Positions 4,929-26,392 are shown, numbered from the stretch's first letter. The stretch is DNA of 64,000 nt from Bacteroidota bacterium (GCA_947504725.1 CANNHN010000004.1:135203-199202), one strand, 5' to 3'. The notes: generated by a model from the letters alone, not told the origin. Numbers and translations: made by a program.

Positions 4929-5342
4929 ATGAAACTAAAGCGCAGACATAAAGAAGGTGCTGAAGTAAGTACAGAATCGTTAAACGATATCATGTTCTTT
5001 CTTTTGCTTTTTTTCTTGATTATATCCACGTTGGCAAATCCAAGTGTATTGAAATTGACATTGCCGAGTTCTAATAATGGTGTTCAGATGTCTAAACAAC
5101 AAATCACTATTGAATCGGATGCCGACCATCAATTTATAATAAACAAGTTACCTATTTCGTTTACTCAGTTGGAAGATGCATTAAAAGTAGAAATTGCAAG
5201 AATTAATGGATTAGGTATGGAGCCTACTGTTGTTTTGAAAATGGACAACACATTGTCTATTCAGGATTTGGCAGATGTTATGCAAATTGGTTATGGGTTA
5301 GGAGTTAAAATGGTATTGGCTACAAAGTCAGGAGATAAATAA
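4929..5342 (+). CDS. exbD: Biopolymer transport protein ExbD/TolR
   Basis: 137 aa with a single N-terminal TM segment. Immediately downstream of exbB. Confidence 0.7.
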   Translation: MKLKRRHKEGAEVSTESLNDIMFFLLLFFLIISTLANPSVLKLTLPSSNNGVQMSKQQITIESDADHQFIINKLPISFTQLEDALKVEIARINGLGMEPTVVLKMDNTLSIQDLADVMQIGYGLGVKMVLATKSGDK

Positions 5343-5343
5343 A

Positions 5344-6144
5344 ATGGAAGCAACCGAAACTAAAAGTAAGTATTTGGCAGTGGTATTCACAATAGGATTC
5401 CACGCGTTGCTATTCCTGCTTTTTATTTTAATTGTTTTCGTTACTCCAATTCCTGCTTTTGAAATTAAACCGGTTCCCGAAATTGAAATTGGTTTAGGGA
5501 TGGAAGGGGCTGGAAATACCGCTAGTGGAGGTTCTGGGGAGAATGATCCCAATATTGAAACGAGTATGGAAGCTGCTGTTAGCTCCTCAGAAACTGCTCC
5601 AAATATTATTACTGACGAAACAGAAACGGAAGTTAGCGTAAAAACAAATCCGAATGCAACACCTGAAAGCACTGCTGAAGCATTGAGTCCTGAAGAAAAG
5701 AAAGAACGAGCTGAATTAGAAAAAGCGCTAGCCAAAATTAAAGCGATGAAAGATAAGAAGGGAAAAGGGGATGGAGGAAAAAATACGGGAGGAACAGGAA
5801 ATGGGAATAATACAGGAGTTGGTGATGGTCCAGGAACTGGTATTGGCGATGGAACTCCTGGTGGACCCGGAGGAACGGGTTGGGATTTAAAAGGCCGTTC
5901 TCTTTTGAAAAAACCGGCTAGAATGACTGATTCAGAAGAAGAGGGAATTGTAGTTGTAGAAATTATTGTAAACGAAAATGGAAAAGTAGTAAAAGCAACA
6001 GCAGGTTCTCGGGGGTCAACAACTACCAATGCAAAACTATATTCCAAAGCGAGAAGTGCTGCTTTTGAAGCGAAGTTTAGTCCTAGTCCAGAAGGTATAA
6101 AAGAACAACGTGGAACGTATACATTCGTTTTCACTTTAGAATAA
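5344..6144 (+). CDS. TonB-family protein (second tonB; Gly/Thr-rich linker, C-terminal TonB domain)
   Basis: N-terminal TM segment, a long Gly-rich spacer and the C-terminal GIVVVEIIVNENGKV.. TonB-like fold. Its start lies 2 bp after the exbD stop. Confidence 0.65.
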   Translation: MEATETKSKYLAVVFTIGFHALLFLLFILIVFVTPIPAFEIKPVPEIEIGLGMEGAGNTASGGSGENDPNIETSMEAAVSSSETAPNIITDETETEVSVKTNPNATPESTAEALSPEEKKERAELEKALAKIKAMKDKKGKGDGGKNTGGTGNGNNTGVGDGPGTGIGDGTPGGPGGTGWDLKGRSLLKKPARMTDSEEEGIVVVEIIVNENGKVVKATAGSRGSTTTNAKLYSKARSAAFEAKFSPSPEGIKEQRGTYTFVFTLE

Positions 6145-6206
6145 AATTCAATTACTTTTGTAGAAGTCTTCAATTACAATTTGTGACGTTACTTTATTTA
6201 AACACG

Positions 6207-10469: not shown

Positions 10470-10477
10470 TAAATTTG
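10470..10477 (+). promoter_or_regulatory. Candidate Bacteroidota -7 promoter element (TAAATTTG, consensus TAnnTTTG) upstream of porU
   Basis: Motif match lying 21 bp upstream of the porU ATG. Confidence 0.3.
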
Positions 10478-10498
10478 AAATCTAATCAACCATATCGT

Positions 10499-13400
10499 AT
10501 GCGAATTATACTTGCCTTGTTGTTTATATTAGTTGTTGAAATTTCCGCATTTGGTCAAGCCAAATCTATTGGAAAACTAATTCCAACTAAGTATGCTATT
10601 TCTTGGCAACAGCCTGGTTCTGTTAGGCCATCAGAAAATGAGACCCAACGATTTTTGAGCTTTTCGGGTGCTCAATATCAATTTGAAGATGCTTTTTTGC
10701 CTCGTTATTTCGAAAAAATACCACTTACAAACAATGATTTAAGCTTCGAAACAACTATTATTAACCCTCTTTTTGAAGCTCTTTCTGATGTTGAAACTGC
10801 TATAATTAAAGATCCAGCACTTATTTCTACTGAAATAGTGGTAAAATCGGTTGTTTCCATTGCAAAAAAGCAAAAATATGGTACGGTTTCTTTTATTCCT
10901 ATTCGAAAAAATAGATCTACTGGGAAACTTGAAAAACTGGTTGCTTTTGATCTTTCTGTAGTTCCTAATTCATCAAGAGTGCCAGCTCGTGCTGTTCATA
11001 CTTACGCTGCTAATTCTGTTCTTCAAAATGGTGATTGGTATAAAATAGGGTTGGCTCAAGATGGTGTGTATAAATTATCATTTTCTTTTCTTCAAAGCTT
11101 AGGAATAGATGTATCTACGTTAAATCCTCAAAATATTCGTATTTATGGGAACGGAGGCGGCATGCTTCCTGAATTAAATTCAACTCCTAGAAAGGATGAT
11201 TTGGTTGAAAATGCCATTTTTGTGCAAGGTGAAGGGGATGGCATTTTTGATGCAACAGATTATGTTTTGTTTTATGGAAAAGGACCTCAGAATTGGAATT
11301 ACAATGCAAGTGCTTGTCCGAAATTTACTCATGAATTAAATCTTTATTCTGATTCTGCATATTATTTTATTAATGTTGATTTGGGTGCAGGTAAGCGAAT
11401 TTTAAATCAAGCTTCGTCCGTTTCTGCGGCAACGAATATCGTAAACACATTTGATGATTATAATTTTCATGAAACTAATAATGTGAATTTTATTAAGTCT
11501 GGTAGACAATGGTATGGTGAGTTTTTTGACAATATAGCAACATATAATTTTTCATTTAGTTTTCCAAACATAGACATGTCGGTACCAACAAGTGTTGCTG
11601 CTAGTATTGCTTCACGTTCTTTATCAACTGCCGCAAGTTATTCCATAACAAGTCAAACAGGAAGTACAAGTATTTCAATTGGAGCAACACCTGGCGATGC
11701 TTATAGTGATTATGCAATTATTGGAACAGGTTGTTTTTCCTTTAATCCGAATAACGCGAATGTTGGTGTTACAGTCACAAAATTAACTTCGAGTGCGCAA
11801 GCTTGGTTGGATTATATAACAGTGAATGTTAGACGACAGTTAACAATGTCGGGCGACCAAATGATTTTTAGAGATGTTCAATCTGTAGGCTTAGGAAATA
11901 TTGCTCAATACTCAGTTTCAAGTTTTTTGCCAATTCAAATATGGGATATTACAGAACCAACAAGTGTTTTTGCTCAATCAACTTCCCCAATTGGTTCAAC
12001 TTATCAGTTTACACTTCCGTCCGATACTTTAAAACAATTTATTGCTCATACTGGATTAAGTTATTTAACTGCAAAATTTTCCGAAAAAGTTTCGAATCAA
12101 AATTTGCATGCACTTTCTGATAAAGACTACATTATTATTTCTCATCCTGATTTTTATTCTGATGCTATTCAGTTAGCTACATTTCACGAAAACACTGATT
12201 CGCTTTCATCGATAGTTATAACTCCTCAGCAGATTTACAATGAATTTTCTTCTGGAGCTCAGGATATTAGTGCGCTAAGAGATTTTGTAAAGATGTTTTA
12301 CGATAAAGCTGCTATCGCGTCTGAATTGCCGCAATATTTATTGCTTTATGGCGATGGATCTTATGACAATAGAAGGAGATCAAGTAGCAATACGAATTTT
12401 ATTCCTACATACCAATCCTTTAATTCAACAGTTCTTACTCAGTCATATGTTTCAGATGATTTTTATGGGTTGTTAGATGATTCTGAAGGAACATGGGCTG
12501 GAAGTGCAGATGCTATTGATATTGGGATTGGTCGTTTGTCTGTAAAAAACACTGCTGAGTCAAATGCTGTTTTAAGTAAAATATTTAATTATACAAAAAC
12601 GGGTTTAGTGCCAAATACATCCAATAATGGTTGTTCAAATAATGTATCCAATACTCCGTTTGGCGATTGGAGAAATACTGTTTGTTTTATTGGTGATGAT
12701 GAAGATGGCGGCTTGCACCAATCTGATGCAAATAAATTAGCGACTATGGTAGACACTGCAGCAGACGATTACAATGTAGATAAAATTTATTTAGACGCCT
12801 ATCCACAAGAATCTACACCAGGAGGAAATCGTTATCCCACTGTAGCTGAAGCAATAAACAAAAGGATTGAGAAAGGTTGTTTGATTTTGAATTACACTGG
12901 GCACGGTGGAGAAGTTGGTTTGGCACACGAAAGAGTTATAGATGTTTCTCAAATTAATAATTGGAAAAACTTTAATAATCTACCCTTGCTTTTTACTGCT
13001 ACTTGTGAGTTTAGCAGATTTGATGATCCAGAAAGAACATCAGCTGGTGAGTATGCTCTTATAAATCCTGAAGGTGGAGCAATTGCTCTATTCACAACTG
13101 TTCGATTGGTATTTGCTTCAGGAAATTTTTATTTGAATCGTGATTTTTACGAACGAGCTTTTCTTCCAATTGCTGGTAAAATGCCACGGTTAGGTGATTT
13201 GTTTGCGTATATCAAAAACGAGCCCGGTGGGAATTCGGTAAACAGTAGAAATTTCACATTGCTTGGCGACCCAGCGTTGACATTGGCGTATCCAAAATTT
13301 GATGTCTCAACAGATACCGTAAATGCAATTCCAGTTTCTGTATCAAGTTCAGATACTTTGAAAGCGCTTTCATTGGTAACAATCAGTGGGTTTGTAAGAA

Positions 13401-14386
13401 ACACTAGTGGGTCGGTTATTAATACATACAACGGAGTTGTTTATCCGACAGTTTTTGATAAGTCTCAAAATATTACAACTCTTTCTAATGATGGAACTTT
13501 ATCAAGCCCTCCATTTACATTCGGAGTGCAAAAAAATATTTTATACAAAGGAAAAGCAAGTGTAACAAATGGAGCCTTCAAATTTTCTTTTGTTGTACCA
13601 AAAGATATTGCTTATGCCTTTGGAATAGGAAGAATAAGTTATTATGCAGAAAACGGAACAGAAGATGCAAATGGATATTATGAAAAAGTAATTATTGGTG
13701 GCTCAAATGATTCAGCTGCAATTGATAATGCAGGACCTAATGTTGATTTGTTTTTAAATGATGCAAAATTTGTTTATGGAGGATTAACGGATGAAACACC
13801 TGATTTGTTTGCAATTCTGAAGGATGATAATGGTGTAAATACTGTTGGAAATGGAATTGGACATGATATTACAGCAGTTCTTGATGGAAATACAGAAAGT
13901 TCGGTTGTATTAAACGATTATTATCAAGCCGATTTAAATAGTTATAAAAGCGGAACAATCCGTTACCCTTATTCTGAATTGAGTGAAGGGAAACATACTT
14001 TGAGTTTAAAAGTGTGGGATGTTTATAATAACTCGAGTCAATCGTATACTGAGTTTATTGTTGCCCGTTCTGCTGAATTAGCTTTGAGTCATGTATTGAA
14101 TTATCCAAATCCATTTACTACAAAAACTCAATTTTATTTTGAGCAAAATCAATGCTGTCAAGTATTGGATGTTTCTGTTCAGATCTTTACAGTTTCAGGT
14201 AAATTGGTAAAAAGTATTGACCAGTTTGTACAAACAGAAGGTTTTCGTTCAGACCCGATTGATTGGGATGGCCGAGATGATTTTGGAGATAGAATTGGAA
14301 AAGGTGTTTATATTTATAGAATAAAAGTGAAGACAAGTGAAGGGGCAGTAGCCGAAAAATTCGAAAAGCTTGTTATTTTAAATTAA
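10499..14386 (+). CDS. porU: T9SS C-terminal signal peptidase PorU (peptidase C25/gingipain-like)
   Basis: Approximately 1295 aa with a signal peptide. A gingipain-like His/Cys dyad is visible (NYTGHGGEVG ... LFTATCEFSRFDD). It has a Por-type C-terminal domain and is followed by porV. I chose the ATG at 10499 over the TTG at 10475. Confidence 0.75.
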   Translation: MRIILALLFILVVEISAFGQAKSIGKLIPTKYAISWQQPGSVRPSENETQRFLSFSGAQYQFEDAFLPRYFEKIPLTNNDLSFETTIINPLFEALSDVETAIIKDPALISTEIVVKSVVSIAKKQKYGTVSFIPIRKNRSTGKLEKLVAFDLSVVPNSSRVPARAVHTYAANSVLQNGDWYKIGLAQDGVYKLSFSFLQSLGIDVSTLNPQNIRIYGNGGGMLPELNSTPRKDDLVENAIFVQGEGDGIFDATDYVLFYGKGPQNWNYNASACPKFTHELNLYSDSAYYFINVDLGAGKRILNQASSVSAATNIVNTFDDYNFHETNNVNFIKSGRQWYGEFFDNIATYNFSFSFPNIDMSVPTSVAASIASRSLSTAASYSITSQTGSTSISIGATPGDAYSDYAIIGTGCFSFNPNNANVGVTVTKLTSSAQAWLDYITVNVRRQLTMSGDQMIFRDVQSVGLGNIAQYSVSSFLPIQIWDITEPTSVFAQSTSPIGSTYQFTLPSDTLKQFIAHTGLSYLTAKFSEKVSNQNLHALSDKDYIIISHPDFYSDAIQLATFHENTDSLSSIVITPQQIYNEFSSGAQDISALRDFVKMFYDKAAIASELPQYLLLYGDGSYDNRRRSSSNTNFIPTYQSFNSTVLTQSYVSDDFYGLLDDSEGTWAGSADAIDIGIGRLSVKNTAESNAVLSKIFNYTKTGLVPNTSNNGCSNNVSNTPFGDWRNTVCFIGDDEDGGLHQSDANKLATMVDTAADDYNVDKIYLDAYPQESTPGGNRYPTVAEAINKRIEKGCLILNYTGHGGEVGLAHERVIDVSQINNWKNFNNLPLLFTATCEFSRFDDPERTSAGEYALINPEGGAIALFTTVRLVFASGNFYLNRDFYERAFLPIAGKMPRLGDLFAYIKNEPGGNSVNSRNFTLLGDPALTLAYPKFDVSTDTVNAIPVSVSSSDTLKALSLVTISGFVRNTSGSVINTYNGVVYPTVFDKSQNITTLSNDGTLSSPPFTFGVQKNILYKGKASVTNGAFKFSFVVPKDIAYAFGIGRISYYAENGTEDANGYYEKVIIGGSNDSAAIDNAGPNVDLFLNDAKFVYGGLTDETPDLFAILKDDNGVNTVGNGIGHDITAVLDGNTESSVVLNDYYQADLNSYKSGTIRYPYSELSEGKHTLSLKVWDVYNNSSQSYTEFIVARSAELALSHVLNYPNPFTTKTQFYFEQNQCCQVLDVSVQIFTVSGKLVKSIDQFVQTEGFRSDPIDWDGRDDFGDRIGKGVYIYRIKVKTSEGAVAEKFEKLVILN

Positions 14387-14418
14387 TTTGTACATTAGCA
14401 ATCCTAAATAAAAATTGA

Positions 14419-15693
14419 ATGATAGATATTAGAGCATACAGCAAAAAAATATTTTTATTTGCTACCGCTATTATAGTTGTAGAGAGCGTTAAATCCCAAT
14501 CAAGTCAAAGTCAACGTGCTGAAGAACTTCAGTTAAATACGATAACTACAGCCGTTCCGTTTTTGCTTATTACACCCGACTCAAGAGCAGGTGGAATGGG
14601 AGATGCTGGCGTTGCGTCTTTAAACGATGTGAATGCTGTTCATTGGAATGCATCAAAATTAGGCTTTACAACAAAAAAAATGGGCTTTGGTGTTTCTTAT
14701 ACGCCATGGTTAAGAGCGTTGGTGCCAGATATTAATTTAGCATACATCACTGGTTTTTATAAGATGAAGAAGAAAGGAACTATTGCAGGTTCACTTCGTT
14801 ATTTTTCTTTAGGTGATATCACTTTCACAGATGCAAATGGGCAAACTACTGGACAATTTCGTCCAAATGAATTTGCACTTGATGTAGCTTATGGAACAAA
14901 GTTGGCAGATAATTTTGCAGTTGGTTTAGCGGTTCGATACATCAACTCAAATTTAACTGGAAATGCACTTGTTCAAAGTTCACAAACTCGTCCAGGTCGT
15001 GCAGTTGGCGTTGATCTTTCTGCATTATACAAAAAAGAGAAAGTGAAACTTGCAGATAAAAAAGCAATTGTTGCTTTTGGAATTAATATTTCAAATATTG
15101 GAAATAAAATGTCATACTCAGATAGAGGTGATAAAAATAGCGATGATTTTATTCCAATTAATTTGCGTTTAGGTGGATCGTTAAATGTGAATTTGGATGA
15201 TTATAATTCAATTTCAGTTTTAGCAGATATCAATAAATTATTAGTTCCAACTCCTCCCACTTATAAATTTAAAGTTGATGCAAATGGAGTAACTACAGGA
15301 GAAATAGACGTAGATGCGGATGGGAATCCAATAATTGAAAAAGGAAAAGATCCTAACCGCGGAGTAGCAGAAGGAATGTTTGGTTCGTTTACGGATGCTC
15401 CAGGTGGTGGAAAGGAAGAGTTAAGAGAACTTAACTATTCGCTTGGTTTGGAATATTGGTACAATCATTTGTTTGCTGTTCGTGCAGGATATTTTTATGA
15501 GCATCCAACAAAAGGGAATCGTCAATTTTTTACAATTGGTGCGGGAGTTAAGTACAATGTTTTTGGGTTAGATTTTGCATATTTGATTCCAACTCAACAA
15601 CGTAATCCTTTAGAAAACACATTGCGTTTTACTCTTACATTTGACTTTGATGCATTCAAAGATCAAAACAAAGAAGAAGCAAAAACAGAATAA
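14419..15693 (+). CDS. porV: T9SS outer-membrane shuttle protein PorV (LptO), FadL-like beta-barrel
   Basis: 424-aa signal-peptide OMP immediately downstream of porU, which is the conserved synteny. It shows the alternating beta-strand pattern of a barrel. Confidence 0.65.
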   Translation: MIDIRAYSKKIFLFATAIIVVESVKSQSSQSQRAEELQLNTITTAVPFLLITPDSRAGGMGDAGVASLNDVNAVHWNASKLGFTTKKMGFGVSYTPWLRALVPDINLAYITGFYKMKKKGTIAGSLRYFSLGDITFTDANGQTTGQFRPNEFALDVAYGTKLADNFAVGLAVRYINSNLTGNALVQSSQTRPGRAVGVDLSALYKKEKVKLADKKAIVAFGINISNIGNKMSYSDRGDKNSDDFIPINLRLGGSLNVNLDDYNSISVLADINKLLVPTPPTYKFKVDANGVTTGEIDVDADGNPIIEKGKDPNRGVAEGMFGSFTDAPGGGKEELRELNYSLGLEYWYNHLFAVRAGYFYEHPTKGNRQFFTIGAGVKYNVFGLDFAYLIPTQQRNPLENTLRFTLTFDFDAFKDQNKEEAKTE

Positions 15694-16324: not shown

Positions 16325-17011
16325 TTATAGTGAGATGGTATATTCTAATCCTAGGATATATAAATTTTGTGGAGCGGAAAGATTCCATTCTCTTTGTATT
16401 AAATAATAAACCCCAAAAGTGTTTCTTTCGCTTTTTTTGTAATCTAATCCGACAATGTATCTGCCTCGATGCCATAAGTTATTTACGTCAACTGAACGCG
16501 GATTGTTGATTTGGTATCGTAATTCGCAAGCAATATAGGGTTTTACAGGTTTGTCTAAATCGTATTTTATAGTTAACTTACTTCTGGTGTACCATTCAGG
16601 AATTGCTCCTAATTCACTTGAGTAAATATTTCTGTATTCTCCTTGAAGTCTTTGACGGAAGGCGAAGGAAAGTTGGCCAGCTTTTTTCTTTAAAAGAACA
16701 TCCAACATTACTCGGTGACGAAAACTAATAGCATCGTCCTCAATGAATTTTTCGATGCAACGATAAGACAATGAAATTTTCATGAAATCAGTAGGCTTAA
16801 ATGAAGCTCCTAAATCCGTATAAAATAAATTGCTTTGCGAATAATTTTCTCTCACACGATATTCTTCTGTAATAAACAAGCTGAATTTTTGATTTAATGC
16901 TTTCTCTACATTAAAAGTGCACCATAAACCAGCGTCATCATTGGCTTGTGCGAATGATTTGGACGTTAAGCCAATGGCGATTATAAAAAGCAGTGCAATT
17001 TTCTTTATCAT
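16325..17011 (-). CDS. DUF2490-like outer-membrane beta-barrel protein
   Basis: Signal peptide (..SFAQA) and a barrel-like alternating pattern, 228 aa. Last gene of the co-directional cluster. Confidence 0.45.
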   Translation of the reverse strand: MIKKIALLFIIAIGLTSKSFAQANDDAGLWCTFNVEKALNQKFSLFITEEYRVRENYSQSNLFYTDLGASFKPTDFMKISLSYRCIEKFIEDDAISFRHRVMLDVLLKKKAGQLSFAFRQRLQGEYRNIYSSELGAIPEWYTRSKLTIKYDLDKPVKPYIACELRYQINNPRSVDVNNLWHRGRYIVGLDYKKSERNTFGVYYLIQREWNLSAPQNLYILGLEYTISL

Positions 17012-17017
17012 AAAAAA

Positions 17018-17644
17018 TTATTTTGTTACGTTGTAATAAACACGAATTAATGCTGTGTCCTTCAGGAAATCAATTTTCCCAATGGAAATACGATTAATTT
17101 TGATACCCATTCTGTTTTCGAGATCGGCTAACAACTCTGCTCGTAGTTCGGGTTTAATCATCTCAATGTTTTCGTATTGAATGTTTTGAGAAATCTCCTT
17201 TTTCATAAAAACTGAAGTTTCCAAGGCAAAAGTGAAAATGATAATAATAAGGTTGATGAATGAAATCTCAATCCAGTTTCCTTTGCTTAGTGCTGTAATT
17301 AAGCCCATGGCAATTACTAAAAAGAGATAAGTCATGTCTTTTGTAGAGATGCCTTCCGTTCTATAGCGAAGCATAGAAAAAACAGCAAATAAACCAAATG
17401 CAGCCCCCATGCTCATGTCCGATTTGTTCAAAATGAACGTGATTAAAAATATAATAAGGTTGAAAATAAAGAGTGTGAAAAAATTTTCACGGTTTTTATA
17501 GACAGGGAAATAGATAAATCGAATTAGAATAAATACAGAAACTAGATTGATTGCTAATCGAATAAAAAACTTTTGACCCAGTTTTTCAAAAAGTGTAAAT
17601 CCTGTATTAACAGCTTCTTCAGTTAACTCTTGTAGTAGTACCAT
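17018..17644 (-). CDS. DUF4956-like polytopic inner-membrane protein
   Basis: 208 aa with about 4-6 TM helices. Its start overlaps the VTC gene stop by 26 bp. Confidence 0.45.
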   Translation of the reverse strand: MVLLQELTEEAVNTGFTLFEKLGQKFFIRLAINLVSVFILIRFIYFPVYKNRENFFTLFIFNLIIFLITFILNKSDMSMGAAFGLFAVFSMLRYRTEGISTKDMTYLFLVIAMGLITALSKGNWIEISFINLIIIIFTFALETSVFMKKEISQNIQYENIEMIKPELRAELLADLENRMGIKINRISIGKIDFLKDTALIRVYYNVTK

Positions 17645-18386
17645 ACAATGCTTTTTTTATTAAAATTAATTTAGGTTTAAAATTATTGTGCTTAATCTTT
17701 TCATATAAATTTATAATTCCGAAACAATATTTACTTATTGCACCTTGTCGGATATGATATTTTTTCATTAATTTCAAAAAAGGAGAAGGAACTGCTTTGT
17801 CTTGCTTTACTTCGGCAATTACAATTTTTTCAATCGTTTTATTTTGATCTTCGTTCTTAAAAGTTAAATTCAAATCGATCGTTACTCTTTCGGGTGAATG
17901 TTTGTTTACAAACGTAATTCTAGAATAATTCACCCAAATTTTAGCCTCTAAATTGTCTGATTTTAAGGGAGTTTTATGTGTTAAAAGTTCTTCCGCTTTT
18001 TCTTTTATTGAACCATCAATTTCTTTTTGCTTTACTCTGTCTTTTATTGTCCGTCCTTTGTTTGTTTTAAACTTTACTTCAAAAAAATTCAAATCAGATT
18101 CAACATATTTTCTGAATCGTACTTTAAATCTGCTTGGTTTTCCCCTGTGATGTGAATGATATAAATCAAACCCTTTTGTGTCAAAATATAACGACTCGTA
18201 TCTACTTATTTTGTTGCCATTTACATCTAGTATTTTGTAATCGTTTTTTATCTGATTTAATAATTCAGGTAAAAGCTCAAACTTAAAAACAAATTTAGTG
18301 TCAGTTCTATCCATCAACTTCACACTGTCCATTTCTTTTAAAGTAATGGGCTCAAATTCATTCAATATGCGATTTACTTCGTCCAC
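17619..18386 (-). CDS. VTC-domain protein (polyphosphate polymerase / CYTH-like triphosphate-tunnel domain)
   Basis: Soluble 255-aa protein, or 237 aa if the ATG at 18332 is used instead of the GTG at 18386. It has charged beta-strand motifs typical of the VTC/CYTH tunnel (..YFDT.....Y..H..G...R.K.R.R.Y..). The family assignment is from recollection. Confidence 0.55.
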   Translation of the reverse strand: MDEVNRILNEFEPITLKEMDSVKLMDRTDTKFVFKFELLPELLNQIKNDYKILDVNGNKISRYESLYFDTKGFDLYHSHHRGKPSRFKVRFRKYVESDLNFFEVKFKTNKGRTIKDRVKQKEIDGSIKEKAEELLTHKTPLKSDNLEAKIWVNYSRITFVNKHSPERVTIDLNLTFKNEDQNKTIEKIVIAEVKQDKAVPSPFLKLMKKYHIRQGAISKYCFGIINLYEKIKHNNFKPKLILIKKALYGTTTRVN

Positions 18387-18388
18387 GT

Positions 18389-18958
18389 TTAGTATTCGTA
18401 TGTATACTTCTTTATAGAAATGACCGTACCGTTTCCATCGGTTGTTTTCTTCTCAGTTTTTAAACCATTTTTATCATAAGCATAAATTGATTTTTTTATC
18501 ATTTTACCTTTTTCGTCCATCGTTATTTCGTAAGATCTATCACCTTTTGCATTGTATCCATGTTGCGTTTTTTCTAGAAGTTTCCCGTTCGCATCAGATG
18601 TAGTTTCAAATGTTTTGTCTTTGTTGGAATTGTACTCAGTCGTTATCTTTTTCTTCAAATTTCCTTTTTCATCAAAAATAAGTTCTTCTGTAATATCATT
18701 ATTTTTGTTGTAGGTCTGAGCTTCTTTTTTCTTGATAGAACCATCTTTGTTGTACTCAATTAGTTCTATAACATTCCCGTTTTTGTCAAATTTTTGAGAC
18801 ATGTCTGTCCGTGTTTTTTCTTTTCCTTCAATTGATTCTGTTACAACAGTAACACTTGATTTTATACCGAGTTTTTTTACTTCTTTTTTGCTTTGTGAAA
18901 ATGAAGTAAGTGTAAGTATAGAAAAGATGAATGAAAGGAATATTAACTGAGTTTTCAT
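18389..18958 (-). CDS. Secreted repeat protein (approximately 22-aa repeats Y.KNG....E...D.NG; MORN/YwqK-like?)
   Basis: Signal peptide followed by internally repetitive Lys/Asn-rich repeats. I chose the ATG at 18958 over the one at 18997 to avoid overlap. Confidence 0.45.
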   Translation of the reverse strand: MKTQLIFLSFIFSILTLTSFSQSKKEVKKLGIKSSVTVVTESIEGKEKTRTDMSQKFDKNGNVIELIEYNKDGSIKKKEAQTYNKNNDITEELIFDEKGNLKKKITTEYNSNKDKTFETTSDANGKLLEKTQHGYNAKGDRSYEITMDEKGKMIKKSIYAYDKNGLKTEKKTTDGNGTVISIKKYTYEY

Positions 18959-18969
18959 TTTATATTTAT

Positions 18970-19386
18970 TTATTTTACGATTTCGATTGTTTCGCATTCA
19001 ACCGTTTGTTTTTTCTTTGTGATCTCAACATCTTTAATAACGGCCAGCCTGTTAACAGTTGTTAAGGATGTACCACTTGAATAAGAATATATCGTATAGT
19101 TGCCAGCGCGCAAGTATTTAAATTCATAAATTCCATCAAAATTTGCTTGTACCTTATCGCCATAAGTAGCATCATCACCGTAAATGATGTAGACATCTTC
19201 ATAGGCACCAGCAAATTCTCCTCCTAGTGAAGCAGGGATTGCTATGCCAAGGTCGTTGTATCTTTTTACCCAAATTTTTCCAGTAATTGTTGCCTTTCCT
19301 CCTTCACCTTCTGATTTTTTACATGAAGAAATTGATAAGAGACTTACTGATATAAGTGATAGAATAATTATTTTGAATATTTTCAT
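18970..19386 (-). CDS. Small lipoprotein, tandem paralog 1
   Basis: 138 aa with lipobox ..SSCKK. Paralogous to the adjacent 141-aa gene (shared GKIWV..YN.LG, GEFAGA.EDVYIIYGDD..YG.KV, DGIFEFKYLR.G.Y). Confidence 0.5.
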   Translation of the reverse strand: MKIFKIIILSLISVSLLSISSCKKSEGEGGKATITGKIWVKRYNDLGIAIPASLGGEFAGAYEDVYIIYGDDATYGDKVQANFDGIYEFKYLRAGNYTIYSYSSGTSLTTVNRLAVIKDVEITKKKQTVECETIEIVK

Positions 19387-19405
19387 CTTTCTGAAATGAG
19401 ATTTA

Positions 19406-19831
19406 TTATTTATAAATAGTTAGAGTGCCTGCGTCAACGGTTTCTTTTTTGTTAGCTATGTTTACTGAAACATCTACTGTTTTTATTCCTGAGCCATAAA
19501 AATAGGACGCACGTGTAGTGTCTTTAGACTTTACATAAACTTTGTAATCGCCTTTTCGTAAATATTTAAATTCAAAAATCCCATCAGGTCCTGATTTTAC
19601 TTTGTTACCATAGCTTATATCGTCACCATAAATGATATAAACATCTTCATCTGCTCCTGCAAATTCACCTTTTAAAAAATAGGGAGGACTAGATATACTT
19701 CCTAATGTGTTGTAGTTTTCAACCCATATTTTTCCTTGAATAGTTGCTTGTCCGCCTTCTCCTTCTGGTTTGTTGCACGATGCAATTATCAGTGCTACAG
19801 TAACAGCTAATAATAAGATTTTTTTACTCAT
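19406..19831 (-). CDS. Small lipoprotein, tandem paralog 2
   Basis: 141 aa with lipobox ..ASCNK. About 50% identical to paralog 1. Confidence 0.5.
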   Translation of the reverse strand: MSKKILLLAVTVALIIASCNKPEGEGGQATIQGKIWVENYNTLGSISSPPYFLKGEFAGADEDVYIIYGDDISYGNKVKSGPDGIFEFKYLRKGDYKVYVKSKDTTRASYFYGSGIKTVDVSVNIANKKETVDAGTLTIYK

Positions 19832-19935: not shown

Positions 19936-22900
19936 TTAGAGTGTTTTTGTTTTAATTAGTTTAATTGTTTTTGTAAATTCTTTTGTTTTTAATTCAATAA
20001 AGTACATTCCAGACGCCATAGCCAATCCTTTTGTGTCAAAATTAAACGAATAACTTCCCTCTGCATGAAAAGTATCAGGAGAGACAATGGTTGCTACATC
20101 TTGACCAATTATTGAATACAATTTTACGCTTACTTGCATACTTTCTGGCAACTGAAAATTGATAGTAATTAAATCGTTGAAAGGATTTGGATATACATCT
20201 AAGCCCAGTTCAAGAACATCAAAATGTGCTCTGAAAACATCATTTGTATCGATGTTTAAAGTGATACTTTCGAGTTCAGTTTTTAAAATAGTACTATTTG
20301 CTTCCCAATATTTGAACTCGTATCCAGGATTTGCAATGGCTGTGATGGATACAGGAACACCATCAAAGTAGACGCCTGTCCACGGTAGCGACTCAGGAGT
20401 AATGGTGCTGATTTTAATTTTACCAGCTCCAGCAGGCATTACATCTAATGTCACATCCACTTGTTTTGTTAATCCAAATTGACTTTGTATCTGGTCGCGT
20501 GCAAATCCAATTCTATTTGTCGCAAATAGCATCATGGTGTCAATTTCACTTTCCCATTCAGTTACATTTGAAGAAGGACCAATTAAACCACTCCAAAAAC
20601 TTCCTCCCCAGCGAGTAAAATGTCTTGGCATTTCTGGTAACATTTCATCATGCATTGCATCTGCATTTTGTTGCATAGTGCTTGGTAAAAAAATGGTGTT
20701 CATTAAATCAGCATATCGATCAACAAAATAATTTTTAAATTCTGAATTTGCTAAAAGCCCAGACAACATTGTTGAATGGGGATTTACTGTAACGGGGTTA
20801 ATAGCGATATCTAAAAAGTCGGTGCTTACTGCTCCGCCCCAAGCAGTAGCAAATCCAAGTGATAAGTCGGTATCCCATAAAACATAACGCCATTTTCCAA
20901 CTGGATTATTTGGTCGCCAAAATTTGATATTGTTGGTGTAACTTCCAAGCCAATCGATATTTAATATATACGTTTCCGTTATAAAATAGTCGCAAAAATT
21001 TTCTACATCCAACAGACTTTTTGCTGTATTGTAATTTGCAGCAATAGACATATCGTTTGAGCCAATCCAATTTGACATGCTCAAAAATGCGGTATTACTT
21101 CCTTCAATTATACTTCCATCAAATTGTAAAAAATCAATTTTGTCGGCAGGAATACCGCTGTTGTTTTCTATATAATCTTTGTCTTGTTTTTCACGTAATT
21201 CATAAACGCCCCAATAATCACCGTTGATGAAAAGCACACATGGTCTGCCGTCCATAATTTCAAGACTCGTACTTTTTTGAGCATTTTTTTGATTGAAACG
21301 GTCACGCATATGCGCTTTGTTCCAATCTGAACCAGCATTTCGAATGTTGAATGATTTGTATTGCGTGACAAATGGTTTGTCCGGAAACAAAGGGTAATCA
21401 ATCGTTTCGCCTTTGTAGTTTTCTTTTGTTTTTACAGCAAATCCTCTTTGTGGCCAAGCTTTTGAATAATTTCCTTGGATAGCGATAGAAGATGGAGTTT
21501 CAAATCCTAAATTTCCATTTGGGTCGAAATACTCTATGTTCGCAGGTCGTTCCCAGCCTTGCCAAAAATTCGCACCTTGAAAAGGAACATTTACTGTATC
21601 AGCATTTGGGCCCATTACATAAATTCCATAATTGTAATCAAACAAATTATAAGGATCGCTGGTTAAGGAAACAACAGGTAGTTCAATGTTTTCGTTTATG
21701 AAATAAGTATTGGTAATAATTTCGCTTGGCAATTGTAATGGGTCCGTTGAATACGTACGTGCTCTTACAGCCATAGTGGAATCAATAGTAATTGGAGTTA
21801 AGTACAATGCAGATGTTTGATCGGGATCTTTTCCATCAAGTGTATATCTTACCAATCCTGTTGGGGAAGACATACTTAATGTTTGTGTTGAAGAATAAAA
21901 TCCAGCACTTAAAGAAAAAGAAGGTTTACTTAGATAATCAGTGTAGAATGCGGAAGTGTTATTCGTTGTATCTGGAGTTGGAGAATCAAAATAATACCAA
22001 CTGCTAGCTCCATTAGGTCTTCTACCAAATGTGTTATTCAATTGCATTCCTCCAATTATTTTTTGGTCAACGATATTTCCTGAAGCATCTTTTAAAATTA
22101 GTTCTTGTCCAGTGCTATTTAAATTAAAGCTGGTATGTAAATTAACAATAGCTGCAAACGGATAATACGTAACTGCGGTATCGTTTACTCCAATTAAAAA
22201 ATAGGGGATCATAGAAAGATCGTCCGTTCCACTAGAGAAATTGTGTACCTGAACACTAAATACATTTAATCCTGGTTTGATAGCGGCATCAACAACTTCG
22301 GGTGAAACAAAATAAGCTCCTGAAAAATTTCCAGTTGAATAAACACTAGCTTCATGCTCATCATAAGCCCAAGTATTAAAGTTTGGTCGGTCACCATAAA
22401 CGCCAACATTCGCACGAGCTATTTCAACACCATTTAAATAAGCAACAAAGCCATCATCATAATCTAAAAACAATAAAGCTGTTGGGATCTTACTAGTATC
22501 AGCAATATTAAAACTAGTTCGCATAAAAACTGAAGTTATTGGAGGAGTGATAGTGCTATCATCTCCATCGCCATAACCAATTCCTCCAATTCCTGTTAAC
22601 CAAGATGCATCGTTAAAAGTTATATCAGGCCAAGTAGCTGGCGGGTTTGTTGTTCCTAAAAAATATTTCCATGGAAGCTGAGGATAAACAGGTACTTCCC
22701 AATGGTCGAAGTATGCATTTCGGTTTTTCTTAGAACAAAAAACGGTTAAGTAATCGTTTGCTTTTATATTTATGCTTGGAAAAGTCCAAGATTTACTTTT
22801 TCCATTTTCGATAGAAGAGATAGTATATCCACTCATATTGATTGGTGAAGCTGTAGGATTATAAAATTCAATCCAATCTTCTTGGTCGTTATCTTCATCT

Positions 22901-23019
22901 AAATAACTAGAAACACTCGCGTTGGAAACTTCATTAATGACAATTTGTGCATTTGACTGCAATGCACATGCAAAAATTAAAGAGAAAATACAGTAGAGTA
23001 GGCGTATATTAATGCACAT
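19936..23019 (-). CDS. CotH kinase-family protein with N-terminal lamin-tail domain and T9SS C-terminal sorting domain
   Basis: 1027 aa. An LTD-like N-terminus (VINEVS..DWIEFYNPT..MSGYTI) is followed by a CotH core (..FINGDYWGVYELREKQDKDYIE..). The last approximately 80 aa (VYPNPFNDLITINF...GMYFIELKT) match a T9SS CTD. Confidence 0.65.
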   Translation of the reverse strand: MCINIRLLYCIFSLIFACALQSNAQIVINEVSNASVSSYLDEDNDQEDWIEFYNPTASPINMSGYTISSIENGKSKSWTFPSINIKANDYLTVFCSKKNRNAYFDHWEVPVYPQLPWKYFLGTTNPPATWPDITFNDASWLTGIGGIGYGDGDDSTITPPITSVFMRTSFNIADTSKIPTALLFLDYDDGFVAYLNGVEIARANVGVYGDRPNFNTWAYDEHEASVYSTGNFSGAYFVSPEVVDAAIKPGLNVFSVQVHNFSSGTDDLSMIPYFLIGVNDTAVTYYPFAAIVNLHTSFNLNSTGQELILKDASGNIVDQKIIGGMQLNNTFGRRPNGASSWYYFDSPTPDTTNNTSAFYTDYLSKPSFSLSAGFYSSTQTLSMSSPTGLVRYTLDGKDPDQTSALYLTPITIDSTMAVRARTYSTDPLQLPSEIITNTYFINENIELPVVSLTSDPYNLFDYNYGIYVMGPNADTVNVPFQGANFWQGWERPANIEYFDPNGNLGFETPSSIAIQGNYSKAWPQRGFAVKTKENYKGETIDYPLFPDKPFVTQYKSFNIRNAGSDWNKAHMRDRFNQKNAQKSTSLEIMDGRPCVLFINGDYWGVYELREKQDKDYIENNSGIPADKIDFLQFDGSIIEGSNTAFLSMSNWIGSNDMSIAANYNTAKSLLDVENFCDYFITETYILNIDWLGSYTNNIKFWRPNNPVGKWRYVLWDTDLSLGFATAWGGAVSTDFLDIAINPVTVNPHSTMLSGLLANSEFKNYFVDRYADLMNTIFLPSTMQQNADAMHDEMLPEMPRHFTRWGGSFWSGLIGPSSNVTEWESEIDTMMLFATNRIGFARDQIQSQFGLTKQVDVTLDVMPAGAGKIKISTITPESLPWTGVYFDGVPVSITAIANPGYEFKYWEANSTILKTELESITLNIDTNDVFRAHFDVLELGLDVYPNPFNDLITINFQLPESMQVSVKLYSIIGQDVATIVSPDTFHAEGSYSFNFDTKGLAMASGMYFIELKTKEFTKTIKLIKTKTL

Positions 23020-23155: not shown

Positions 23156-23851
23156 TTATTTTTTAAAAATGGCATTAAAATCTGCTTCATAACTGCTTCC
23201 AATAGGAATTTCTTTCCCTGCAATCGAAATCATTTTTTTTCTAACGTTTTCTATTTTACTAAATGGAATAATAAATGAGCGATGCACACGAATGAATTCT
23301 GTGGAAGATAATTTTTCCATAATGCCTTTCATGGTCATTCGTGTTACTATTGGTTTTGGGTTATTTAAAAGATGAATTTTTAAATAATCATCCAATCCTT
23401 CAATTAAAGCGATATCATTTATGGCAATTTTAATCAGACTATAATCTGCTCTCACGAATAAATATTGTTCCATGTTTTTTTCTAAAGTTCCAGCAGAACC
23501 AAAATTATCTTTTGCTTTATTTACTGCTTGTAAAAAACGTTCATAGGTATAGGGTTTTAGTAAATAATCAATGGCGTTTAAATTAAATCCTTCCACAGCA
23601 AATTCGCTATAAGCAGTTGTGAAAATAACCATTGTGTTTTGTTCAATCGATTTGTAAAGTTCAATGCCTGACATGGAAGGCATATTGATGTCCAAAAACA
23701 ACAAGTCGGTTGGGAATTTACTAAGATGTTTCAATGCTTCATTCGGCATTGAAAATGTTTTTTGTAGTTCAATTAATCCAGTTTTCTCACAAAAATTTTC
23801 AATAATTTTCAATGCTGGTAATTCATCGTCAATGGCAATTGCTTTTATCAT
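23156..23851 (-). CDS. LytTR-family two-component response regulator
   Basis: Receiver domain (..LFLDINMP..) plus a C-terminal LytTR DNA-binding domain. 231 aa. Confidence 0.8.
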   Translation of the reverse strand: MIKAIAIDDELPALKIIENFCEKTGLIELQKTFSMPNEALKHLSKFPTDLLFLDINMPSMSGIELYKSIEQNTMVIFTTAYSEFAVEGFNLNAIDYLLKPYTYERFLQAVNKAKDNFGSAGTLEKNMEQYLFVRADYSLIKIAINDIALIEGLDDYLKIHLLNNPKPIVTRMTMKGIMEKLSSTEFIRVHRSFIIPFSKIENVRKKMISIAGKEIPIGSSYEADFNAIFKK

Positions 23852-24849
23852 TTAAGGTCTATTGTTAGTGAAACTGAATATTCTTTTTCAGTATTGTTAA
23901 TTTGTAATTTGTGTTTTCCGGGATAAATCATTTGCAATCTGTTTTTTGTATTTTGTACTCCAACACCACTTTCGGATTCTGCACTGCGTTGAACAAAAAC
24001 TTTATTGTTTTTTACAAATAAAAATAATTGATTTTCCGTTGTGTCAATCTTAATATTAATTATTGAATTGTCTTCAGCATTTACACCATGTTTGTAAGCA
24101 TTTTCAATAAATGGAATAAGTATTAATGGTGCAATTGTTTTGTTTTTATGGTCTCCAGTAATGGTGCATTCAAATTGGATAAAACTTCCAAAACGAATTT
24201 GTTGTAATTCAATAAAGTTCTGAATGTATTCAATTTCTTTTTCTAAACTAACATAATCACTTGAACTTTCGCTTAAAACATAACGCATCATGTTTGACAA
24301 TTTAACAATTGAAGAAGCGACATTGTCGGATTGGACAATTGCCAAGGAGTAGATGCTGTTTAATGTGTTAAATAGAAAGTGAGGGTTGATTTGAGCTTTT
24401 AAATAAGCCAATTCGGCATCAAGTTTTTCTTTTTCAGATTGTTTCAAGCGAACGTTAATTTTAAGCATCAGTGAGAAAACTAAAACAATTAAAAATAAAA
24501 AGAGACGAATTTTAATTTCTCGTATAAAAAATGTATCAAAAGTATTTGAATTAAAATTAGTAGAAGGGATGAGTACAAGTGGTAAAAAGAAGATTAGTGC
24601 AAAATAGAAAAACACTACAAAGTAAAAAATGTAATATTTTTTTTCAAAATATAGTCTTGGAATTAAAACGAAATAACTTAAATAAAAAAAAGGAATCAAA
24701 ATAATTGAAAATAGTAAATCGCGCTGAAACCCTTTGGCGTGAATAAAATCAAAATCAAGAGAAAGGTCAGGCGAAAAAATAATAGGAAGTGCTAAGAAAA
24801 TAGCGCAGCCTAATAAGTGAATGACAAGTTGATTGGTTTTTTTATTCAT
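23848..24849 (-). CDS. LytS/YehU-type sensor histidine kinase (membrane)
   Basis: N-terminal TM helices and the His_kinase motif LKAQINPHFLFNTLNSI. It overlaps the RR gene start by 4 bp. Confidence 0.75.
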   Translation of the reverse strand: MNKKTNQLVIHLLGCAIFLALPIIFSPDLSLDFDFIHAKGFQRDLLFSIILIPFFYLSYFVLIPRLYFEKKYYIFYFVVFFYFALIFFLPLVLIPSTNFNSNTFDTFFIREIKIRLFLFLIVLVFSLMLKINVRLKQSEKEKLDAELAYLKAQINPHFLFNTLNSIYSLAIVQSDNVASSIVKLSNMMRYVLSESSSDYVSLEKEIEYIQNFIELQQIRFGSFIQFECTITGDHKNKTIAPLILIPFIENAYKHGVNAEDNSIINIKIDTTENQLFLFVKNNKVFVQRSAESESGVGVQNTKNRLQMIYPGKHKLQINNTEKEYSVSLTIDLK

Positions 24850-24892: not shown

Positions 24893-26392
24893 CTACTTTA
24901 TTTTTTGAAATTTTGAATACCCGTTCTCATTCACTTTGATCAAATACATTCCGGAAGGAAATTCTGAAATATCAATCTTTTCGGAAGTATTCTGAGATGT
25001 TAGTTTTGAAATTTCTTGTCCTAATGAATTGTAAATTCGAATTGCATTTTCAGTTTGAGTTAAATTGAAGTTAATTGTGATAAAGTCGTTCGCAGGATTT
25101 GGATAAACTATGAATGGATTGTTTTCCGAACTATTTTCATTTACTCCAACATAACAACCATTTAAAAATAATTCTGCTATCAATGCATTTCTGCGGTCGG
25201 TAATAAATGTTTTTATTCCCATTATCATTCCTACGTCTGATGTTAAATTTGTTTCGAAGTCTGCACTCGAATAAAATTTTATGCCATCGGCATAAACATC
25301 CGTACGGATTGCATTTGCTAATGAATCAATTTTTGAATCCAATGCAGCATTACTAAAATCGTATTGAAGCCATTGACAAAATACATCCGTTAATGTGCTT
25401 TTGTAAGATGGTACAGCAAGCATTTTTTGAACTAATGGTCGGTTTGTTGAAGGTGTAGAAACGTGATAAGCGCTTAAGTTTTTAAGCTGTGTGTTCGTTA
25501 ATCCCATATTGAAATTCCCAAAAGATTCATTGACATCCCAACTCACCCATTCAAATTTATTTGCAAGTGTATCGTGATAAATAAAATAATTGTGACCACT
25601 TCCAATATATGAATCCAGATTGACAAATAAATTCATGGCTGCCCAATGTCTAATGAAACTACTAGTGTTTAAAGCCACTTCCAAAGAGTCTTGAAAATTG
25701 CTTGCGCTATTATTAATGTTGTCAATTAAGTCGACTAAATCGGTCCAATCATTTGCTGTTTCATTTGTATGCAATTCGTATTTTGCATAATAGGAAGATG
25801 CGGCAGTACCATACCATCTTAAATCTCCAGATGGATCACCTTTAAACATGTTCCCTTGTTTGTTTCCAAAACGATCATCTAGAAAAGTTTTGTTTGCTTC
25901 TTCAACAAACATGTATAATCCCCAATAAATTCCATTTAAGTAGACACGAGTGTATGAGCATCGTGGAGCCGCTAATCCATGTTCATTATAAAAATCTAAC
26001 GCCAATTTTTCACGCATAAAAGACGGGTCTTTAAAACCGTTATTCAAATTGAATTTTTTTATTCCATCAAGTTCACTAGTTGATCCATATTCATTTAAAT
26101 CTATTTTAAATGGTTTTTTTGTACTTGGGTTAGAGTAAGAAGAATTTCCTTTAAACTTTATTCCCACGTTTGGATAAATCACACCGTCTATAGTTACATC
26201 TCCTTTTAAATATAAATCCAATGGTTTATTTGCCACGAGAGAATCCCAGTAATTGGTTTGTGGAAATGTCATATATATATCATGAACAATAGCTTGTCCG
26301 AAAAAAATATCGCCTTCTGTTTGAGCTTTGGTTTTAGATGAGAGTAAAGAAATTGAGATTAAAAAAAGTGGGAGTAGCTTTTTTAGTTTCAT
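24893..26392 (-). CDS. CotH kinase-family protein with T9SS C-terminal sorting domain
   Basis: 499 aa with a signal peptide. The CotH core aligns by eye to B. subtilis CotH (HDIYMTF.., GIKFKGNSS..KKPFKIDLN, KKFNLNNGFKDPSFMREKLALDFY, YLNGIYWGLYMFVEEANKTFL). A T9SS CTD is present (VYPNPANDFITINF..). Confidence 0.7.
   Translation of the reverse strand: MKLKKLLPLFLISISLLSSKTKAQTEGDIFFGQAIVHDIYMTFPQTNYWDSLVANKPLDLYLKGDVTIDGVIYPNVGIKFKGNSSYSNPSTKKPFKIDLNEYGSTSELDGIKKFNLNNGFKDPSFMREKLALDFYNEHGLAAPRCSYTRVYLNGIYWGLYMFVEEANKTFLDDRFGNKQGNMFKGDPSGDLRWYGTAASSYYAKYELHTNETANDWTDLVDLIDNINNSASNFQDSLEVALNTSSFIRHWAAMNLFVNLDSYIGSGHNYFIYHDTLANKFEWVSWDVNESFGNFNMGLTNTQLKNLSAYHVSTPSTNRPLVQKMLAVPSYKSTLTDVFCQWLQYDFSNAALDSKIDSLANAIRTDVYADGIKFYSSADFETNLTSDVGMIMGIKTFITDRRNALIAELFLNGCYVGVNENSSENNPFIVYPNPANDFITINFNLTQTENAIRIYNSLGQEISKLTSQNTSEKIDISEFPSGMYLIKVNENGYSKFQKIK

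Follow-up and report, generated by a model that had tools for sequence, protein, structure and literature searches.

A giant CotH-family kinase-like protein predicted to be exported by the type IX secretion system, and the VTC/DUF4956/DUF2490 gene cassette beside it in a Bacteroidota bacterium

Why does a bacterium of the phylum Bacteroidota, whose members to our knowledge form no endospores, encode a giant protein of the CotH family, and does this protein act alone or together with the products of the genes beside it? The question arises from a 64,000-nucleotide (nt) stretch of DNA from a Bacteroidota bacterium (GCA_947504725.1, CANNHN010000004.1:135203-199202), which was analysed as a whole and is called the window here. 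On its minus strand, 19936..23019, lies a gene for a CotH-family protein of 1027 amino acids (aa), for which an original prediction made from the DNA alone had proposed an exported, non-spore atypical kinase. We consider that the gene encodes an active, exported CotH-family phosphotransferase that is functionally tied to a downstream cassette of VTC, DUF4956 and DUF2490 genes; this reading draws on sequence comparisons and a structural model, and we give it a probability of roughly 0.6.

The uninterrupted frame of 1027 codons starts with ATG and fills 19936..23019 (-) exactly. The peptides quoted in the original prediction were all found in the translation (VINEVS at residues 27-32, DWIEFYNPT at 48-56, MSGYTI at 62-67, and FINGDYWGVYELREKQDKDYIE at 597-618), and the giant CotH gene is therefore as it was described. 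The domain order proposed at that time, namely a signal peptide, a lamin-tail domain (LTD), CotH, and the C-terminal domain (CTD) recognised by the type IX secretion system (T9SS), was likewise recovered, with a hydrophobic N-terminus and with Pfam and NCBIfam scores above the curated cut-offs. All Pfam domain calls of the giant protein exceeded these cut-offs. The gene and its parts are as follows.

19936..23019, minus strand: giant CotH-family gene, a complete open reading frame (ORF) of 1027 aa, defined by the ORF, its domains, its orthologs and a structural model.
22948..23019, minus strand: signal peptide, residues 1-24 (predicted cleavage before Q25).
22714..22947, minus strand: LTD (PF00932), residues ~25-102 (Pfam span 21-102, 47.6 bits, cut-off 34.3).
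21970..22713, minus strand: sugar-binding jelly-roll like the N-terminal domain of glycoside hydrolase family 2 (GH2; residues ~103-290), followed by an immunoglobulin (Ig)-like beta-sandwich (~293-350), both from the model and Foldseek.
21703..21909, minus strand: CHB_HEX_C_1 / Fn3_assoc, residues 371-439 (Pfam).
20512..21486, minus strand: CotH kinase-like domain, Pfam span 512-836, structural extent ~446-850 (Pfam and Foldseek).
20866..20961, minus strand: catalytic segment N687-I-D689-W ... N696-N697 ... W715-D716-T-D718, within the CotH domain (hhalign, MAFFT and 78 orthologs).
20221..20379, minus strand: Flg_new_2, a divergent InlB B-repeat-like beta domain, residues 881-933 (Pfam 29.6 bits, cut-off 23.6).
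19954..20196, minus strand: T9SS type-A CTD (Por_Secre_tail, PF18962), residues 942-1022 (Pfam and NCBIfam).

The CotH domain matched PF08757 with 138.4 bits (E 5e-40, cut-off 23.8) over profile positions 1-318 of 322. An AlphaFold2 model of the full-length protein was obtained with a pLDDT of 89.3 and a pTM of 0.79, and its best PDB match in Foldseek was the CotH kinase of B. cereus, solved in apo and Mg2+/AMP forms (5JD9/5JDA), with an E-value of 1e-12, a probability of 1.00 and a target-normalised TM-score of 0.78. The CotH fold assumed in the original prediction was thus recovered. In hhalign to 5JD9 and in a joint MAFFT alignment of the CotH domains of the giant protein, of B. cereus and of a second, short CotH protein encoded in the window, N687-x-D689 paired with N222-x-D224 of B. 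cereus, N697 with N229, and W715-D716 with W246-D247. By the same alignments D689 corresponds to D228 and D716 to D251 of B. subtilis CotH, both needed for activity and inactivating when substituted (PMC7821199).

D689 and D716 were present in the giant protein and invariant in 78 orthologs (46-100% identity), as were N687, N696/N697 and D718, and these residues do not suggest a pseudokinase. The columns common to the giant, short and B. cereus CotH domains (F557, D565, R572, N599, G604, E610, N687, and W715) were also invariant in the 78 orthologs, and the N-lobe motifs G516-N517-x-S519 and R560/D565/R572 were conserved, but Q524 in the N-lobe takes the place of a Lys of the short CotHs. The invariance of the catalytic Asp, the metal-binding Asn/Asp and the universal motifs implies selection on catalysis. 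The giant gene therefore looks like one for a genuine CotH-family atypical protein-kinase-like enzyme that is catalytically competent in appearance, and fold, catalytic residues and CTD together support the earlier reading of an exported, non-spore kinase of this family. The host belongs to Bacteroidota/Bacteroidia and the protein has a signal peptide and a T9SS CTD, which does not fit the spore-coat functional class; the absence of a spore-coat role had been correctly foreseen, though unsurprisingly, CotH proteins being already known outside spore coats.

Hydropathy placed the N-terminal hydrophobic stretch at residues 2-20, and in the 78-sequence alignment a variable leader stops at an A|Q junction and is followed by conserved QIVINEVS, with Q25 in at least 90% of the sequences, which points to signal-peptide cleavage before Q25. 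At the other end, the CTD scored 40.5 bits against PF18962 (cut-off 27) and 43.6 bits against NCBIfam TIGR04183, the T9SS type A sorting domain (cut-off 23), and the profile of the giant family matched a solved CTD (8glj_D). Because the protein combines a Sec signal peptide with a type-A CTD, and because PorV and a PorU-like protein are encoded 0.6-5 kb away in the same window, its export across the outer membrane by T9SS is a straightforward expectation.

14419..15693, plus strand: PorV, T9SS outer-membrane cargo shuttle/channel, 424 aa (NCBIfam NF033710, 493.5 bits, cut-off 250).
10475..14386, plus strand: PorU-like protein (Peptidase_C25 and FlgD_ig), T9SS CTD signal peptidase/sortase, 1303 aa (Peptidase_C25 342 bits).

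Only ispF separates this PorU-like/PorV pair (10475-15693, +) from the DUF2490 gene, and the PorU-PorV-IspF-DUF2490 synteny was retained in relatives down to 55% identity (locus L035). Cargo with a type-A CTD may be anchored or released. The giant protein would accordingly stay on the cell surface or be set free, and the surface display suggested in the original prediction is one of these two outcomes.

The giant CotH gene is the fourth of ten in a co-directional, tightly packed array with the order short CotH, histidine kinase, LytTR regulator, giant CotH, two lipoproteins, MORN-like protein, VTC, DUF4956, and DUF2490. Intergenic gaps range from -28 to +136 nt across the array and from -28 to +104 nt downstream of the giant CotH gene, and its co-transcription with the VTC/DUF4956/DUF2490 cassette is likely. 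The original prediction had overlooked these conserved downstream genes, together with the InlB-B-like domain. The downstream genes are:

19406..19831, minus strand: small lipoprotein A, 141 aa, lipobox IASC (ORF; persistent neighbour).
18970..19386, minus strand: small lipoprotein B, 138 aa, paralogous to A and limited to some of the relatives (ORF).
18389..18997, minus strand: secreted Lys-rich MORN-variant-like protein, 202 aa, 18.3% Lys, pI 9.6 (Pfam).
17619..18386, minus strand: VTC-domain protein with a polyphosphate-polymerase-type triphosphate tunnel domain (Pfam VTC 110.4 bits).
17018..17644, minus strand: DUF4956 membrane protein with ~4 transmembrane helices, its gene overlapping the VTC gene by 26 nt (Pfam 174.4 bits).
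16325..17011, minus strand: DUF2490 protein with a signal peptide (Pfam 77.9 bits).

The VTC protein is predicted to be cytoplasmic because hydropathy showed neither a transmembrane helix nor a signal peptide; its basic and acidic tunnel motifs are conserved across Bacteroidota and Firmicutes. The DUF2490 protein is probably an outer-membrane protein (predicted barrel). Weak matches suggest a prealbumin/CarboxypepD_reg-like beta-sandwich for lipoprotein A, the L035 ortholog of which gave weak Pfam matches to Y_Y_Y, SdrD_B and CarboxypepD_reg. Searches of the PDB by phmmer with the VTC, DUF4956 and lipoprotein A proteins gave nothing informative, and no solved VTC structure was matched.

The synteny from giant CotH through DUF2490 was retained down to 55% identity. 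At ~48% identity, in Flavobacteriales, the giant CotH gene keeps only the small lipoprotein, and some orthologs are in unrelated contexts; lipoprotein A was the most persistent neighbour of giant-CotH orthologs. The five-gene cassette (lipoprotein, MORN-like, VTC, DUF4956, and DUF2490; window 16325-19831, -) recurs with or without CotH. We scanned metagenomes with VTC as the anchor and obtained 80 loci (L037-L116; 48-90% identity), restricting each count to loci with enough flank. DUF4956 followed VTC in 57/57 of these loci and DUF2490 was present in 31/41, while the small lipoprotein and the MORN-like protein were each found in 44 of the 50 loci with enough upstream flank. Where at least 5 kb of upstream flank was available (33 loci), ORF calling and an HMM search found a same-strand CotH gene upstream within 7 kb of VTC in 14. 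Each of the 22 CotH ORF matches near VTC (22/22) was upstream and co-oriented, in 366 kb of DNA sampled upstream and 337 kb sampled downstream. The CotH proteins associated with the cassette had the architectures CotH-CTD, CotH-LTD-CTD, P-domain-CotH-PKD-CTD, and the giant form.

As a separate observation, a ~553-aa protein with a T9SS CTD and no other recognisable domain is encoded upstream in several cassettes without CotH (L075:7823-9481, L049:4779-6443, L083, and L103); in three of them (L075, L083, and L103) its gene lies between those for DUF2490 and the MORN-like protein. This protein may serve the cassette as an alternative partner.

The co-directional arrangement of CotH, VTC and DUF4956, with three small genes between CotH and VTC in the window, thus recurs in L035, in the 14 VTC loci above and in L030, a locus of an Oscillospiraceae metagenome-assembled genome (MAG). 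In L030 (4983-9481) the genes for a 989-aa LTDx3-CHB_HEX_C-CotH protein, a 236-aa VTC protein (E 5e-35) and a 223-aa DUF4956 protein (E 9.6e-10) are consecutive, and the trio is flanked by unrelated housekeeping genes of the CCA-adding/poly(A) polymerase and purine nucleoside phosphorylase families. This is a monoderm version of the module, without DUF2490 and without the T9SS tail, and its LTD-CotH protein shares its architecture class with the giant protein.

The same gene families have been described together before. Gram-positive Pel loci carry CotH, VTC polyphosphate polymerase and DUF4956 (and DUF4832) as accessory genes (bioRxiv 10.1101/768473), and in C. perfringens NELoc-2 contains both VTC domain genes and CotH (PMC2879425). 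As in the window, the families in these loci are contiguous and co-directional, an arrangement reproduced in L030. The Bacteroidota locus differs from the Pel loci in adding a DUF2490 gene with a signal peptide, one or two small lipoproteins, a Lys-rich MORN-like protein and a T9SS CTD on CotH, and in the window neither Pel genes nor DUF4832 are adjacent. The literature that we searched ascribed no function to the CotH-VTC-DUF4956 module or to the five-gene cassette.

A further likeness is to the eukaryotic VTC complex (Vtc4 tunnel domain and transmembrane channel): the VTC protein of the window has the tunnel domain with its conserved basic and acidic motifs, and its gene overlaps that of a multi-pass membrane protein. 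The VTC protein of the window differs from eukaryotic VTC in that it has no SPX domain and its membrane partner is DUF4956 rather than the VTC transmembrane domain. As Guan et al. 2023 is cited in PMC10657179, the eukaryotic complex couples synthesis to translocation. The overlap of the VTC and DUF4956 genes suggests such a coupling of synthesis and translocation for their products.

The domains around the CotH domain bear on where such an enzyme would act. The original prediction had noted a long middle region, which is indeed present, and left it unidentified; we find in it a GH2-N-like jelly-roll and an Ig domain. The Pfam library scan matched no family at residues ~103-350. The region is nevertheless the best-conserved part of the giant protein, with 27 invariant positions in the 78 orthologs, and the full-length model and a model of the middle domain only (pLDDT 78.7; jelly-roll blocks mostly 80-94) agree on a jelly-roll with an Ig-like sandwich behind it. 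The top PDB matches of the middle domain in Foldseek were all to the N-terminal domains of GH2 beta-glucuronidases/galactosidases (probability 1.00, E from 2.6e-6), with about 185 columns at 3.9 A in the case of 6quc_A. Two invariant acidic clusters, GYGDGDD (residues 148-154, window 22558-22578, -) and DYDDGF (residues 186-191, window 22447-22464, -), look like a metal-dependent ligand site. Separately, the closest homologs (P0001-P0010) carry the precomputed Pfam family PF26342, which the Pfam scan did not report for the window protein and which may correspond to the middle domain.

Behind this region, CHB_HEX_C_1 (371-425) scored 44.1 bits and Fn3_assoc (381-439) 40.6 bits in Pfam, and the giant-family profile weakly matched the CHB_HEX_C-type domain of the beta-hexosaminidase 6q63. 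The accessory domains of the giant protein (LTD, GH2-N-like and Ig, CHB_HEX_C/Fn3_assoc, and InlB-B-like) are of the kinds of module that position extracellular enzymes on polymers.

Within its very large, already annotated family the giant protein is unexceptional. More than 100 clusters at 90% identity consist of full-length orthologs that share its architecture, are ~1025 aa long and have 46-100% identity, nearly all from uncultured Bacteroidia/Flavobacteriales MAGs, and some already carry the NCBI name "CotH kinase family protein". An exhaustive search of 50%-identity representatives returned 6,611 at E <= 1e-30; nearly all of the best 150 of these 6,611 cover residues ~10-935 with E <= 1e-154, and many of the 150 extend C-terminally, up to 3,600 aa or more. 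With so many full-length orthologs and representatives, the match is far beyond chance. The modules are shuffled among relatives: L027 and L028 carry LTDs behind CotH, and the Oscillospiraceae proteins carry three LTDs ahead of it.

Like the giant protein, the CotH proteins of Bacillus (B. subtilis; B. cereus 5JD9/5JDA) have PF08757, the atypical kinase-like fold, and the catalytic and metal-binding residues. Unlike it, they are single-domain proteins of ~360 aa that serve spore-coat assembly, whereas the giant protein is a secreted multidomain protein of 1027 aa in a non-sporulating phylum. Closer in setting are the CotH proteins of the C. thermocellum cellulosome, Cthe_0239 (LTD, LTD, Fn3, CotH; 117 kDa) and CseP/Cthe_0044 (CotH), which are extracellular members of a surface complex, Cthe_0239 also having the LTD-...-CotH order (PMC6083626). 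They differ from the giant protein in being anchored to the cellulosome instead of carrying a T9SS CTD, and their listed domains do not include a GH2-N-like jelly-roll. An extracellular LTD-CotH protein is thus of a known kind, and in Bacteroidota a T9SS tail is the adaptation to be expected.

On these data we can sketch how the locus might work. The accessory domains would target the kinase-like domain to a polymer at the surface or in the environment, either a glycan or a surface protein; Fam20B may offer a glycan-kinase analogy for CotH. The cytoplasmic VTC protein would polymerise phosphate at the inner membrane and, by analogy with eukaryotic VTC, hand the chain to DUF4956 for crossing. 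The basic MORN-like protein, the lipoproteins and DUF2490 would handle polyphosphate in the envelope, and the exported CotH protein would transfer phosphate to an extracellular target, or otherwise modify it, in conjunction with polyphosphate. The substrate, the phosphoryl donor and the export of polyphosphate in this sketch are conjectural and are taken by analogy. A stronger version, which we regard as doubtful, would make the CotH proteins encoded here, and those of CotH-VTC-DUF4956 modules across phyla in general, extracytoplasmic phosphotransferases with polyphosphate as phosphoryl donor or co-substrate, the chain being made by a VTC-type polymerase and threaded via DUF4956, in diderms also via DUF2490, with the aid of a Lys-rich periplasmic carrier. 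If true, bacteria would have their own equivalent of the eukaryotic VTC machine for synthesis and translocation, and the problem of kinase function outside the cytoplasm, where ATP is absent, would be solved.

Several observations weigh against an active enzyme tied to the cassette. Of the VTC cassettes, 19/33 were without CotH, other T9SS cargo taking the upstream position, and roughly half of the long-flank giant-CotH orthologs had no VTC nearby (e.g. L010, L013, L015, and L033). The giant CotH domain is 14% identical to 5JD9 in the structural alignment and very divergent from characterised CotHs. Neither phmmer with the giant protein nor hmmsearch with the 78-member profile reached 5JD9 in the PDB, returning only a spurious START-domain match, the CTD and the hexosaminidase accessory domain; the link to 5JD9 was obtained via Pfam, hhalign and structure. 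Within QGNYSKAWPQRGF (residues 515-525, window 21445-21477, -), Q524 is invariant in the giant family at a place in an N-lobe strand where the short CotHs carry Lys (KKPFKI), a swap that might bear on nucleotide or donor binding. Finally, GH2-N-like and LTD domains can serve purely structural roles.

The cassettes without CotH and the orthologs without VTC also favour an exported CotH kinase that acts separately from the cassette and phosphorylates surface or secreted proteins, a possibility that we hold to be unlikely on balance but plausible. The adjacency of VTC and DUF4956 would then reflect shared regulation or envelope localisation only, and the enzyme would draw on nucleotide set free in the envelope or the surroundings, or act on its substrates before or at export, in parallel with Fam20C in the secretory pathway and with CotH on CotB/CotG. 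Fam20C is likewise kinase-like and acts outside the cytosol on secreted substrates. CotH has been described as its distant relative, and ATP-dependent Ser/Thr protein phosphorylation is the demonstrated activity of CotH, with no other shown (PMC7821199); no direct sequence or structural match between Fam20 and the giant protein turned up. Conserved catalytic residues and fold agree with an independent kinase as well. On the other side, the linkage is seen repeatedly, in Bacteroidota, Oscillospiraceae, streptococci/clostridia/bifidobacteria and C. perfringens, the common orientation of all 22 CotH matches relative to VTC is hard to explain without a functional tie, and no extracytoplasmic source of ATP is evident. 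That the protein is instead a non-catalytic adhesin or ligand-binding surface protein, using the CotH fold as a binding module to which LTD and GH2-N-like domains add adhesion, seems improbable to us. Such a role would suit its many binding-type domains, its T9SS export and the high divergence of its CotH domain from the Bacillus enzymes, but the catalytic Asp, the metal-binding Asn/Asp and the universal motifs are invariant in orthologs down to 46% identity. Moreover MGQTNDGAYRDPTDNN, which we take to be the GRP78-binding surface motif of Mucorales CotH, is absent from the giant protein both as an exact and as a relaxed pattern. In fungi, CotH proteins do function as surface ligands, the CotH3 invasins of Mucorales having been proposed to bind host GRP78 (PMC9973265). 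A disguised carbohydrate-active enzyme, such as a glycosidase, might be suspected from the GH2 beta-glucuronidases/galactosidases that dominate the Foldseek matches after CotH and from CHB_HEX_C and Fn3_assoc, which are typical of hexosaminidases. The GH2 matches are confined to the non-catalytic N-terminal jelly-roll and Ig domains, however, and neither Pfam nor Foldseek found a GH2 TIM-barrel, nor Pfam any glycosidase catalytic family, across the giant protein, in which CotH is the sole enzyme-like domain. Because the GH2 TIM-barrel catalytic domain is absent, we rejected the glycosidase identity and regard it as very improbable indeed.

Upstream of the giant CotH gene, the array contains three further genes.

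24893..26392, minus strand: short CotH protein with a T9SS CTD, 499 aa, of a distant CotH subfamily (CotH 217 bits, CTD 62 bits).
23848..24849, minus strand: LytS-type membrane histidine kinase (Pfam His_kinase 98.4 bits).
23156..23851, minus strand: LytTR-family response regulator (Pfam Response_reg and LytTR).

The histidine kinase and LytTR regulator genes overlap by 4 nt and sit between the two CotH genes. The original prediction had reported the second CotH gene flanking the LytTR genes, and these genes are real; calling the CotHs a paralog pair was overstated, and the pairing also varies across relatives. In BLASTP of the short against the giant CotH protein the alignment was limited to the CTD and to 27 residues within CotH, and a recent-paralog pair was ruled out by this very low similarity. 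The short CotH reached 5jd9 by phmmer (3e-21). In L008 and L020 the short CotH gene is directly upstream of the giant one without the two-component genes, and L035 (55% identity) lacks the short CotH and the two-component genes alike. A LytTR regulator, in some cases with a LytS-type histidine kinase, was also found upstream of the cassette in loci that are otherwise divergent (L040, L057, L083, L085, and L109). The LytS/LytTR pair is probably a regulator of the array that was gained and lost between loci.

PADLOC assigned none of seven proteins of the locus to a defence-system family, and Rfam (gathering thresholds) and ARAGORN found no RNA genes within the window. A sigma-70 promoter and terminator scan, which does not model Bacteroidota promoters, was uninformative, with 44 promoter-like sites against 50.9 expected and six terminator-like sites against 5.6 expected. 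Elsewhere in the window, two ORFs of 281 and 266 aa (5328-6173, -, and 5344-6144, +) overlap nearly fully, and one of them is presumably spurious.

By itself, the giant gene adds one member to a large, annotated and functionally uncharacterised family. The link between CotH and a polyphosphate polymerase, noted earlier only for Gram-positive Pel loci, is now extended to T9SS-bearing Bacteroidota, where it brings additional envelope components. In Bacteroidota, Clostridia, streptococci and bifidobacteria, the gene of an exported kinase-fold enzyme recurrently adjoins those of VTC and a dedicated membrane protein, and the CotH-VTC-DUF4956 module is directly testable in cultivable carriers from Bacteroidota or Firmicutes. 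If the linkage is functional, it would point to a system for extracellular phosphorylation or polyphosphate handling, assign a role to the VTC, DUF4956 and DUF2490 proteins of bacteria, and account for the supply of a phosphoryl donor to secreted CotH kinases.

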